The notes beneath the pieces were generated by a model, which ran no database searches, was not told the DNA's origin, and worked only from the letters and a program-made list of their open reading frames with translations. A program made the position numbers and the translations under genes. From assembly GCA_050175015.1 (NCBI GenBank), contig JBFXJJ010000004.1:32001-96000 (forward strand): a DNA stretch of 64,000 bases. The letters are read 5' to 3'. Of this stretch, positions 59,910 to 62,302 are shown in pieces (the stretch's first letter is position 1; each line of letters starts with the position of its first letter). The stretch comes from Alphaproteobacteria bacterium. GTDB taxonomy: Bacteria; Pseudomonadota; Alphaproteobacteria; JBFXJJ01.

Positions 59910-61730
59910 TCAATTTGCAAAGCTCTCTTCAACTTCTTTGTCTGCAAAACCAGCATAAGCACTATTGGTAATCCGATTCATCTTGCGCTTAATTCTATCA
60001 TATCTGCTTTCTGGAGTTTCTGTTGATGACTTACTTCTTGTTTCAATTACTCCATGGCTTGATATTAGACTTTTTTTAGAACAAATGTTACTTGCTGAAT
60101 TCCATAATTTGCCGTCACTACAAAGGCAAACTCCGCTGTGATAGACGGAACCGCTTGGACAGCTTTCACAAATGCCATTGACCCAAACTTTACTTGTCAC
60201 ACTGCAATCAGTACAAAAAGCATTATAATCACCAGCATTAACGCATCTATCATCACCACATTCGCCATCAGCATAACAAAAAGGTTCAACACAATTGCCG
60301 GCTCCGTCAGAAATATAACCATCATCGCAAGTGCACTGCATATTAGCAAAGCAGTTTACACAGTTATAATTTGAGTTACACATCATACCTTTTCTCTGGC
60401 AAAATCCCGATAAGCCGCTTGTTGCCGTACAAGACTTACAGTCATCGCTACGCCAATATGGCAATTCGTTATCACAACAAGAAAGAGTAGCACGATTGCA
60501 AGCTATACCTGCCGAACACAAATCATCACTATAGCCGCAAGAATTGGCTCCTGTTGCCATATTGCATTCACCAATACAGCAAGAACTGTCATTTATACAT
60601 GTCCCCGTCCCTGTTGGTTTTTGTGATGTCCCACAAGAACAAGCTCCACAGATATTAGCCGCATCACAATCTTCACACATACCAATTTCTGAACAACTAC
60701 GACCAGCATTACAACTCAAGCTTGAGCATTCACAAATGCCGTTGTTATCTGTCACTACGCAATTAGGGTGTTCTCCAGAACAACTGTCACCAGCCACACA
60801 AACGCCATCACTTAAAACCGCGCAGCCTGTACAATTTGGAAGTGAACAAGCATCTTCAAACTTTAATCTAGGATAGTCTCCTTCAGGCATACACCAAACA
60901 TTTTCGAAATCCCAATCTGAAAACATAGACTGCTGTTTCATTTCAACTGTAGTTTTACCAATACCTCCGCCGCTACTAGACTGCTGTGACGTTTGAGTAT
61001 CCCAATAACTACTTGTGAATGTTCCACCTACATACCCCGTTAACCCTCCAAGATATGTTCCTCCACTATAAGTAACAATTTTTCCTGAGGCATAAGAATT
61101 TTTGACCACACCTGAATAAACATATCCAGCCAAACCTCCTATTCCACGATAATTCCAAGACCCAATCCTAGCATCACCACAAACATTGCCTGTTGCATAA
61201 CTATTAATTATAGAGCTGTCATTAACATATCCTGTAATACCGCCACTCCATATAGTATTGCAGCTATCAAGATTAACATATGAGCCACTTTCACTTATAC
61301 TTGATAAATATAGATACCCCGTAATTCCACCAGAATAAAAGTAATCAATTGTCGTCAAATTACCTGTTATAAAAATCTTAGAAATATTTGAACTTTGAGA
61401 ATATCCTGCTAATCCCCCAACAACATGTTGGCCTGTTATATTAATATCTAAAAGTTGGACATTTTTTACAGTTGCTGCATTAACTATACTGAACAGCCCA
61501 ACCTGAGATGCCGCAGGCCTGTAAATATATAAATCTGTGATTTTATGATTATTACCATCTAATGTACCTGAAAATGTTCCTATAGGGTAAAACCCTGCAC
61601 CACCGTTCCAACCAGATGTAGCGCTGCAATCGATATCGTTTGCAAGATAAAAATTTCCAGATAAATTATTCTGTATAGCTTGAAGCTCAACGCAGTTAGT
61701 TATTGCTGTCTGAGCATAACCGTAGTTAGG
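59910..61730 (-). CDS. GLUG-motif, Cys-rich surface protein lacking its start codon and signal peptide in this orientation
   Basis: The frame is open for 124 codons upstream of the track's TTG, up to a TAA at 61731-61733, with no start codon: PNYGYAQTAITNCVELQAIQNNLSGNFYLANDIDCSATSGWNGGAGFYPIG...VGGLAG. GGLAG/GGITG repeats are followed by a Cys-rich half. Confidence 0.85.
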   Translation of the reverse strand, partial: PNYGYAQTAITNCVELQAIQNNLSGNFYLANDIDCSATSGWNGGAGFYPIGTFSGTLDGNNHKITDLYIYRPAASQVGLFSIVNAATVKNVQLLDINITGQHVVGGLAGYSQSSNISKIFITGNLTTIDYFYSGGITGYLYLSSISESGSYVNLDSCNTIWSGGITGYVNDSSIINSYATGNVCGDARIGSWNYRGIGGLAGYVYSGVVKNSYASGKIVTYSGGTYLGGLTGYVGGTFTSSYWDTQTSQQSSSGGGIGKTTVEMKQQSMFSDWDFENVWCMPEGDYPRLKFEDACSLPNCTGCAVLSDGVCVAGDSCSGEHPNCVVTDNNGICECSSLSCNAGRSCSEIGMCEDCDAANICGACSCGTSQKPTGTGTCINDSSCCIGECNMATGANSCGYSDDLCSAGIACNRATLSCCDNELPYWRSDDCKSCTATSGLSGFCQRKGMMCNSNYNCVNCFANMQCTCDDGYISDGAGNCVEPFCYADGECGDDRCVNAGDYNAFCTDCSVTSKVWVNGICESCPSGSVYHSGVCLCSDGKLWNSASNICSKKSLISSHGVIETRSKSSTETPESRYDRIKRKMNRITNSAYAGFADKEVEESFAN

Positions 61731-62290
61731 TTATTATCGATAAAAATAAGTTTATTTCGAAAATAAAAGTAATAATATCAATATATTAAATTAAAAATGC
61801 CATTTGTGTTAGGATAAAAAAAGTAAATTTTTGTTTAAAAAATTACCTATAAGCTACCCAGGAAATAAAATATTTCATAAAAAATCTATTATTTATCAAT
61901 ATGTTATAAAAAGACTTGTTTACATATTTGCAAAATTTAATAATATATTGTTACCCTGATGCTACCCATATAAAATACACTTAAAAAATAACTAATATTT
62001 TCAACACATTAAACCAAAATAAAAATGTATTTTTTTTATGTTACAAATATGAATCAATACCATATTCTAAAATAGAATAGTTAGCATATCTCAATTTTAA
62101 TAAAACTATTGTTAAAATTAGTTATTATTTTTTTCACTTGCAAAAGCTATAAAAATAAGACAAAATAACAATAACAAACAAAATAAATCGTAATATATTT
62201 TAAATAAGGAGCAAGGTTATGTTAAATAAATTCAAACTTTTTTCCTTGTTGTTTGTGGCTATAACCATACTTAATCCTAACTACAGTTAT
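61716..62290. other. Candidate invertible DNA segment (phase-variation switch), OFF orientation
   Basis: Inverted repeats ATAACCGTAGTTAGG (61716-61730) and CCTAACTACAGTTAT (62276-62290), 14/15 match. Both are in frame with the split halves of one gene. Confidence 0.85.
62138..62211 (+). promoter_or_regulatory. Promoter and RBS inside the invertible segment
   Basis: TTGCAA-N17-CAAAAT (62138-62166) and AAGGAG (62206-62211). Confidence 0.55.
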
Positions 62291-62302
62291 ACTGTAATGT
62301 AA
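62219..62302 (+). CDS. Orphan signal peptide, the missing 5' end of the GLUG gene
   Basis: MLNKFKLFSLLFVAITILNPNYSYTVM*. Its PNY(S)Y is encoded by the right inverted repeat and matches PNY(G)Y at the start of the minus-strand frame. Confidence 0.8.
   Translation: MLNKFKLFSLLFVAITILNPNYSYTVM

Follow-up and report, generated by a model that had tools for sequence, protein, structure and literature searches.

A family of putatively invertible promoter and export-signal cassettes beside start-less surface-protein genes in an alphaproteobacterial genome, with an orphan arm-binding integrase as candidate invertase

We analysed a 64,000-nt stretch of an Alphaproteobacteria bacterium genome (GenBank assembly GCA_050175015.1, contig JBFXJJ010000004.1, positions 32,001 to 96,000; hereafter the window, C4:32001-96000), in which a short inverted repeat lies at the upstream end of a surface-protein gene that has no start of its own. 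The source genome is a landfill metagenome bin, rated 99.4% complete and 0.56% contaminated, with 35.5% G+C; the names of the closest integrase homologues also suggest an alphaproteobacterium. On balance, we take both ends of the repeat to be core sites of one invertible cassette (61731-62275), which carries a promoter, a start codon and an export signal. The invertase of this switch and its siblings would, with somewhat better than even likelihood, be an orphan 424-amino-acid (aa) arm-binding integrase encoded on contig C1, acting in trans, and not the XerC/XerD pair (XerCD). The anatomy of the switch, its sibling family, the register of the sites, the recombinase inventory and the co-occurrence of a repeat motif were established from the sequence; from them we infer the actual inversion, the cleavage positions and the assignment of proteins to sites.

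The arms of the inverted repeat were located at 61713-61730 and 62276-62293, near the ends given in a preliminary description of this DNA. Each arm is 18 nt long, 16 of the 18 positions (89%) are complementary, and 545 nt lie between them. The 15-nt core ATAACYGTAGTTAGG is present twice in the window, against 0.24 expected copies, and two copies were reached in 2 of 100 shuffles. The gene-side core recombination site (61716..61732, plus strand) reads ATAACC GTAGTT AGGTT, the family form being ATAAC-C, RTWDYH, AGGATA, and codes for P-N-Y-G-Y of the signal-peptide end. The far-side site (62274..62290, minus strand) reads ATAACT GTAGTT AGGAT, with T replacing the gene-side C. A search of Rfam gave no match within 61000-63000.

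The switch unit, 575 bp in all, has on board a promoter, a ribosome site, an ATG and a 19-residue export signal, which face away from the surface-protein open reading frame (ORF). The promoter (CTTGCAA, 17 nt, CAAAAT; 62137..62166, plus strand) agrees with the sigma-70 consensus at 8 of 12 positions by hand count, and a consensus scan did not list it; both hexamers are kept in the alignment of 13 switch units described below. The ribosome site, AAGGAG, is at 62206-62211 and the mini-ORF of the signal peptide at 62219-62302, the two together covering 62206..62302 of the plus strand. The ATG at 62219 opens MLNKFKLFSLLFVAITILNPNYSYTVM, and in the present orientation the frame exits through the far arm and then meets a stop. 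The repeats thus flank a segment with a one-way promoter, which is the layout of an invertible promoter switch.

On the minus strand, the mature part of the silent surface-protein ORF occupies 59910..61715, and its frame continues through the left arm to 61730. Counted from the arm-coded PNYGYAQTAITNC, the open frame is 606 aa long and has neither a start codon nor an export signal, and its first in-frame start would yield just 482 aa. The product matched the Pfam families Peptidase_M26_N (5.5e-11) and Glug (2.9e-07) and has a Cys-rich tail. Since the cassette faces away from a gene that lacks a promoter, a start and a signal, the window locus is in the OFF state. The codon phase is equal in both arms (Y-P-x-x-G/S-Y), and therefore the signal would be joined to the gene in frame upon inversion. 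When the window switch was inverted in silico, it gave a 625-aa open frame with 19 residues ahead of the arm-coded Pro. The joint would fall 2-4 residues before the likely signal-peptidase site, between A and Q of G-Y-A-Q.

Genome-wide scans for sibling switches, as the preliminary description had proposed, returned 13 complete arm pairs, with 562-603 bp per unit, and a 14th, split copy. The complete switches are located on contigs C4, C5 (two), C6 (two), C10, C11, C13, C17, C21, C23 (two) and C27. A pattern that combined the gene-side flank with the arm gave 12 gene-side matches in this genome, compared to none for a backwards control. Beside 12 of the 13 units lie ORFs of 537-880 aa without a start codon, their first residues being P-x-x-G-Y-S/A-Q-T-A/V-I-T, and all 34 Glug matches in the genome fall in ORFs adjoining 10 of the switches. 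In silico inversion produced open frames of 540-890 aa in 12 of the 13 loci; the inverted frames carry 19 residues before the arm-coded Pro in 12 loci and 21 in C23_1832, with K/R and a hydrophobic run. A homologue search with the first 200 residues of the window ORF found an 890-aa protein that begins with SYPKYGYAQTAISTC and also has a Cys-rich tail; a related organism therefore has the same junction motif, apparently in the OFF state.

Two further features of the family were observed. The thirteenth complete unit, C21:16223-16795, is an orphan switch in which both arms, the promoter and the signal peptide are kept, while the gene side holds just a 41-aa frame and the next gene encodes an inosine-uridine nucleoside hydrolase. 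In addition, about 40 nt past the far-side arm (window 62291-62330), ending in TGTAAAATAGT, are conserved on C10, C11, C13, C17 and C27 and at C21:128-167, so the duplicated unit reaches past the repeat.

In the assembly, all 13 complete switches stand in the OFF orientation. The 14th is divided between two contigs, C11 and C21, with one part at the start of each. Contig C11 begins exactly at a gene-side arm, which is followed by a 1594-aa Cys-rich ORF. On contig C21, the first 110 nt are switch interior; an arm with an identical core comes next, followed by a far-side-type flank that matches those of the C10, C13 and C17 units. Of the two interior ends, the promoter-distal one gave the better alignment to the C21 piece in 13 of 13 cases, with a mean score of 19.0, against 9.9 for the signal-peptide end. 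Because the far-side flank is joined to the promoter-distal interior end, the 14th locus appears to be in the opposite, ON, orientation. This locus, together with the contig breaks at its arms, is the sole and indirect indication here that the switches may flip. The 1594-aa product itself (C11:2-4786) consists of long Cys-rich repeats, with no Glug match listed; it has the family N-terminal junction YPNKGYSQ and the C-terminal tail (...ERYSRIKRKINRIRNSAY...).

The uniform OFF state of the complete switches, the lost gene of C21:16223-16795 and the lack of an inverted form among the available assembled contigs would also suit fossil switches that are permanently OFF, with repeats that are non-recombining relics. 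We consider this improbable. Although they lack a start codon, the genes at 12 of the 13 loci have stayed open over 537-880 aa, and the promoter, the ribosome site and the signal peptide are conserved. The interiors of the switches have diverged to ~67-79% identity, with conserved blocks inside, whereas core positions 6-17 of the arms are near-identical within pairs. The oppositely oriented 14th locus, with an assembly break at its arm, also argues against permanently silent relics. A contig piece at 61699-61730 was considered as an inverted junction and rejected, as it runs on into interior sequence of the C13 unit and thus represents that paralogue. In another landfill study, a contig of 363 nt spans the right arm; it has 8 differences and is in the OFF form.

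The register of the recombination site was analysed by aligning the 26 arms of the 13 pairs, with positions counted from the A of ATAAC. The consensus is ATAAC-Y, RTWDYH, AGGATA. Positions 1-4 (TAAC) and 12-17 (AGGATA) are invariant or nearly so in all 26 arms. Position 5 is C on 13 of 13 gene sides and T on 8 of 13 far sides. Positions 6-11 (R-T-W-D-Y-H) vary by locus, except for an invariant T at position 7, and are identical within all 13 pairs; over core positions 6-17, within-pair identity is 13/13 at ten positions and 12/13 at two. Read from the consensus, the half-sites ATAACC and GGATAT form a dyad with a 7-bp spacer and match at 5 of 6 positions. In our assessment, which leans towards it without being firm, the site is a core-type tyrosine-recombinase site with half-sites ATAAC(C/T) and GGATAT around a 6-7 bp overlap. 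Tyrosine recombinases require homology in the overlap between partner sites. Because the overlap differs by locus, it would stop the ~14 paralogous switches from recombining with one another.

The preliminary description had read the ends as dif-type 11-6-11 sites, and this register does not fit the family. The pair-matched core lies at positions 6-11, 2 bp rightward of the proposed spacer (4-9), the first two bases of that spacer are conserved family-wide (C, then C/T), and the right arm proposed there varies between loci at its two innermost bases. The suggestion that the C/T mismatch might bias or lock the window switch also fails, as the same gene-side C and far-side T, outside the core, are found in 8 of 13 pairs; the mismatch is therefore a family feature and not a lesion that locks this switch. 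By contrast, its fallback, a crossover within the perfect 9-bp core CCTAACTAC, agrees with the alignment, in which CCTAACTAC covers the pair-matched variable positions.

The resemblance to dif was quantified over the 22 arm positions in the 11-6-11 register, using the E. coli dif sequence quoted in the preliminary description. The arm counts reported there for the left site, 8/11 and 7/11, were correct. The right site, reverse-complemented, matched at 5/11 and 7/11, and the spacer at 0/6 for both sites. A score of 15/22 was attained by 343 of 5,049,844 28-mers in the genome, and 12/22 is not rare (P = 0.0064); the likeness of the left site is thus above background and that of the right site is weak. 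Gene-side arms scored 10-15 and far-side arms 9-13 of 22, and the 26 arms averaged 12.3/22 against a background of 6.1, which points to some real resemblance. The letters common to the arms and E. coli dif are ATAA, T-T-A-x-G and A/T-rich positions.

For the genome's own dif, no 28-mer reached 18/22 to the E. coli site, and six 28-mers at 17/22 were rejected as chromosomal dif, none being at a skew switch. A terminus-like GC-skew apex was found on one contig alone (C5, near 111260). About 190 bp from this apex, in a 360-bp intergenic gap, C5:111452-111479 reads TTGTCGCATAA-TATATA-TTATGAATAGT, with a palindromic core that is unique in the genome; it is probably the genome's own dif, judging from its position and symmetry. 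The switch arms match this candidate at just 8-14/22 (means of 10.4 and 11.6 for the two orientations). Hence, the two partner sites are not both like the organism's dif. By the register given above, they also lack the 28-bp 11-6-11 layout with a 6-bp exchange region. Moreover, the outer "XerC arm" of the left site is coding sequence for Y-A-Q-T, and its far-side counterparts are unrelated and AT-rich.

The explanation that follows from the dif-type reading is inversion of 11-6-11 ends in trans by the housekeeping XerC and XerD, which we regard as very improbable. XerD-like and XerC-like genes are indeed present (321.9 and 316.2 bits, just under the model cut-offs), the left site stands out among genomic 28-mers as described above, and a recombinase named as Xer inverts phase-variable loci in Ureaplasma (PMC3599477). 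These points are set against the shifted register, the C/T mismatch, which would lie inside the Xer spacer in 8 of 13 pairs, the unrelated far-side outer arms, and the poor match of the arms to the candidate dif on C5. In addition, every switch contains phased repeats and IHF-like boxes, described below. To our knowledge, such elements have no role in Xer/dif recombination and are typical of lambda/P4-type integrase systems. Judged from these comparisons, the dif resemblance is shallow, and the window locus gives no support for a new role of XerCD.

We then consider which recombinases the genome encodes. No match to the serine-recombinase family PF00239 was found in the whole genome, and no IS110/Piv-type enzyme above the cut-off, the only PF01548 match being sub-threshold (20 bits, in a 2367-aa ORF). 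PF00589 gave 17 matches in 16 ORFs genome-wide, so that the genome has the site-specific recombinases expected where invertons occur. In line with the preliminary description, the window was found to contain no recombinase gene, and the sole PF00589 match on contig C4 is at 203621-204133. With no serine or IS110/Piv enzyme, 16 tyrosine-recombinase ORFs and none of these in the window, the invertase would be a tyrosine recombinase acting in trans. The earlier proposal of XerCD or a Xer-like invertase in trans thus stands as regards a tyrosine recombinase encoded elsewhere, and is not supported as regards the dif/Xer type.

The XerD-like ORF (C1:262591-263496, near aroK and aroB, with one ORF between) scored 321.9 bits to the XerD model (cut-off 329.6) and passed NF001399; the XerC-like ORF (C3:34082-35056) scored 316.2 bits to the XerC model (cut-off 335.15). 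Each has a SAM_1 and a catalytic domain. Three 354-aa paralogues on C3, C8 and C21 lie 329-369 nt from tRNA genes; downstream of the C21 copy are NikA and relaxase genes. Five ORFs of ~388-434 aa are on C1, C2, C8, C10 and C20, at least those of C10, C2 and C8 in similar ORF arrays. A tandem Xer-like pair (332 and 317 aa, 44.5% identical) at C39:138-2086, on a 3.9-kb contig, adjoins an AbiEii toxin gene, and one enzyme on C40 adjoins YqaJ. The remainder are two 424-aa ORFs with Arm-DNA-bind_3, on C1 and C4, and a 141-aa fragment on C8. A PDB sequence search gave a sole, weak match, to the XerH catalytic domain. The C21 recombinase, 3.7 kb from the orphan switch, was considered as a dedicated invertase and rejected: it lies 329 nt from tRNA-Leu, ahead of the NikA and relaxase genes, and has two 70-80% identical paralogues beside tRNA-Ser and tRNA-Arg.

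Alignment of the 13 switch units revealed conserved blocks in their interiors. Each switch has two phased pairs of direct repeats, TACCY-N4-GYTACCC, 11 bp from start to start. In the window, pair A (TTACCT-N5-CTACCC; 61843..61859, plus strand) has this 11-bp phasing, and pair B is TTACCC-N5-CTACCC (61951..61967, plus strand); both are proposed arm-type integrase sites. The distance from pair A to the gene-side arm is 128-152 nt in the 12 units that match the pattern (not C6_1628), and the gap between pairs A and B is 92-96 nt in the 11 units in which both match. Three further conserved boxes are located on the plus strand: box 1, TATCAATATATTA (61776..61788), fits the IHF consensus; box 2, TATCAATATGTTA (61894..61906), is IHF-like; and box 3, TTTCAACACATTA (61999..62011), is a weaker IHF-like sequence. 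These calls use WATCAANNNNTTR, which we take to be the IHF consensus. Three HU/IHF-family genes are present in the genome.

The pattern TACC[CT]-N4-5-[CT]TACCC has 24 occurrences within the 13 switches, compared with 3 in the remainder of the 2.5 Mb. Of these three outside matches, two form a triple repeat ~160-190 nt upstream of the start codon of the C1 integrase, and 3 of the 8 outside matches to a looser pattern are also upstream of this gene, where GTTACCC and GCTACCC are found at -54 and -42 from the ATG on the gene strand. Judged by the motif, arm-type repeats would thus lie both by the core sites and by the integrase gene. A half-site GAGCATAACC was also noted ~143 nt upstream of the triple repeat, echoing the geometry of the switches; we give it little weight.

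The C1 integrase (424 aa, C1:263738-265012) stands alone between xerD and lptF. The nearest tRNA on the contig is 122.6 kb away and there are no adjacent mobility genes, unlike the setting of an integrase that mobilises an element with att sites at its ends, often at a tRNA gene. Pfam matches were Arm-DNA-bind_3 at residues 4-90 (4e-13) and Phage_integrase at residues 245-388 (5.8e-19), giving the arm-binding and catalytic domains of a heterobivalent integrase. The protein contains the stretches LLLTGCRKNE, IHTLRHSF and GHNLGGVTNRY, which presumably are the R, HxxR and Y catalytic motifs. Its paralogue, the C4 integrase (C4:203513-204787, outside the window), is also 424 aa long, is 57% identical, and has GGTTCCTG upstream at -54 and -43. 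Five phased GGTTCC pairs occur in the genome, one by the C4 integrase and one at the other end of its island (C4:195388), 50 nt from tRNA-Val. Since the island has repeat pairs at both ends, phased repeats in the C1/C4 integrase family would behave as arm-type sites. The island (C4:195264-205100) is a ~10-kb mobilisable element at tRNA-Val with a relaxase gene, NikA and toxin-antitoxin genes, including those for the RelB and BrnA antitoxins; both its ends carry GGTTCCTG repeat pairs, and the far end has a stretch read as a tRNA 3'-end fragment.

It is possible that another tyrosine recombinase (the C39 pair, the C40 enzyme or a ~388-aa integrase) inverts the switches, and that the GYTACCC repeats are transcription-factor sites; we find this rather unlikely, although it deserves consideration. 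The genome offers 16 tyrosine-recombinase ORFs, and the alignment of the C39 pair (317 and 332 aa) to Xer models covers almost the full length. An 11-bp phasing of direct repeats is also compatible with factors of the response-regulator type. Nevertheless, the repeat pair is almost limited to the switches and the region upstream of the C1 integrase, and the equivalent position upstream of the C4 paralogue holds the arm-type repeats of its island. Most of the other recombinases look like mobile-element integrases, some of them adjacent to tRNA genes or beside relaxase, AbiEii or YqaJ.

With the C1 integrase as the invertase, the switch could operate as follows. The enzyme would bind the four GYTACCC arm-type repeats inside each cassette, and IHF-type bending at the three boxes would fold the 545-bp segment into an attP-like complex bridging both core sites. 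The four repeats per switch would match the four subunits of a recombinase tetramer on two core sites, with two half-sites each. Inversion would turn the cassette and fuse the promoter, start and export signal in frame to the surface-protein gene. A broader reading, which we offer as possible and would place short of even, is that a lambda/P4-type integrase without its mobile element became the master invertase of ~14 private cassettes, each of them a small-scale attP in which two core sites enclose three bending sites and four arm-type repeats. The switches would then descend from the att region of an ancestral island. Acting together, the cassettes would provide an uncultured cell with a surface coat of combinatorial make-up, and the scar left by recombination would be concealed in the signal peptide that is cleaved off.

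Several observations weigh against this assignment. The nearest homologues of the C1 integrase (≤63% identity) have ordinary integrase names, and enzymes of its type usually belong to islands. A separate regulator, one that controls both the cassette promoters and the integrase gene, could be what binds the repeat motif, and the calling of the IHF-like boxes depends on a consensus applied to AT-rich DNA. The above-background dif scores of the arms belong here as well. As to flipping itself, all complete switches are OFF, and the 14th is incomplete: C11 starts at the arm, and the joining of the signal-peptide end to the gene is not seen. Assembled contigs of four runs on 61000-63000 contained no inverted joint, only the OFF form or nothing; assembled contigs drop rare variants, so that this does not show the inverted form to be absent. 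Finally, the flank-plus-arm pattern was found in none of 30 genomes of the same class, and no relative with both the integrase and the same switches emerged from the searches.

Exact arm-pattern scans of a metagenome and a genome contig collection gave 0 matches each. An interior pattern of two repeat pairs, which recovers 11 of the 13 units of this genome, had 0 matches in the genome contig collection. Its two matches in metagenome contigs were rejected as unrelated GC-rich tandem repeats, one of them upstream of a transposase-like ORF.

An attP of the lambda/P4 type has arm-type sites and IHF sites around a core with a 7-bp overlap. The C1 integrase resembles enzymes of this type in having arm-binding, core-binding and catalytic domains, and the switches resemble their sites in the four phased repeats, in the three IHF-like boxes and in a core dyad spaced by ~7 bp. 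Known lambda/P4-type members integrate and excise mobile elements; the C1 gene, in contrast, is an orphan, and the sites considered here flank promoters as inverted pairs. The E. coli fim switch is an invertible promoter with short inverted repeats, a tyrosine recombinase, and IHF sites within or adjacent to it. It is inverted by FimB and FimE, small recombinases that have no arm-binding domain and whose genes lie beside this single switch, which carries a promoter only and no coding sequence. In general, the best-studied invertible switches use small or Xer-like recombinases and carry a promoter only. The XerCD/dif system shares with the present sites a tyrosine-recombinase core, AT-rich arms, those of the switches matching dif at 9-15/22, and a short central region; it differs in that the switches are multi-copy inverted pairs in coding sequence, while the genome's dif candidate is elsewhere and different.

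Arm-binding domains recognise accessory arm sites, and recombinases that have them are tied to mobile elements; the same source cites fim- and hsdS-type inversions as genetic switches, leaving their group unassigned (PMC8138268). The preliminary description had considered a trans-acting Xer-like invertase to be unusual, which is a weak claim in view of the Ureaplasma parvum XerC (PMC3599477) and the C. difficile RecV (PMC7446863). Trans-acting switch recombinases being known, the absence of a nearby recombinase is not unusual. In C. difficile, whose genome has multiple sequences with site-specific inversion (PMC9286219), including the cwpV switch (PMC2784873), RecV inverts the flagellar switch (PMC7446863). 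The RecV switches, cwpV and flgB among them, share with ours short inverted repeats around a regulatory segment and, as proposed here, a tyrosine recombinase acting in trans. In contrast, the segment described here also has a start codon and a signal peptide, one repeat is inside the coding frame, ~14 switches serve one paralogous family, and phased repeats, IHF-like boxes and a candidate enzyme with an arm-binding domain are present.

At the mba/UU172 locus of Ureaplasma parvum, a surface protein varies in phase by inversion at short repeats through a recombinase named XerC; as here, one repeat is in the N-terminal coding part and the recombinase is unlinked (PMC3047005, PMC3599477). Inversion in Ureaplasma alternates neighbouring genes, whereas in our genome each gene has a private promoter and signal cassette, with sites in a non-dif register. 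Partial intergenic invertons, with one repeat in a gene and the other outside, have been reported (PMC10028968), and in shufflons Rci recognises asymmetric sfx sites (PMC11852207). Shufflons swap C-terminal segments at one locus, while here an N-terminal signal and a promoter would be joined or unjoined at many loci. In the literature outside subscription journals and supplements, we found no arm-binding integrase described as a chromosomal invertase and no private promoter-plus-signal cassettes. Here the flipped piece includes the start codon and the export signal as well, and ~14 such pieces serve one family of large GLUG or Cys-rich surface proteins. Their internal layout suggests an arm-binding integrase taken over from a mobile element. 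If confirmed, the system would show clearly how an integrase was domesticated for phase variation, and would provide a natural set of many orthogonal sites, differing in the overlap only, for one recombinase. Such overlaps are relevant to recombinase specificity and engineering.

Two minor observations concern the surroundings of the switches. Just past the window switch lies an ORF of 267 aa (62622-63425, minus strand) without a Pfam match, which the OFF-state cassette promoter faces in antisense. On contig C10, a third site, identical over 18 nt to the arms of the switch there, was found at C10:80112-80129, 7 kb from that switch, in a 20-nt gap between two genes of a four-gene array of DUF6782 putative metallopeptidases. 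This copy is inverted relative to the gene-side arm, and a 7.4-kb inversion that spans the glutamyl-tRNA synthetase and comEC-like genes is conceivable.

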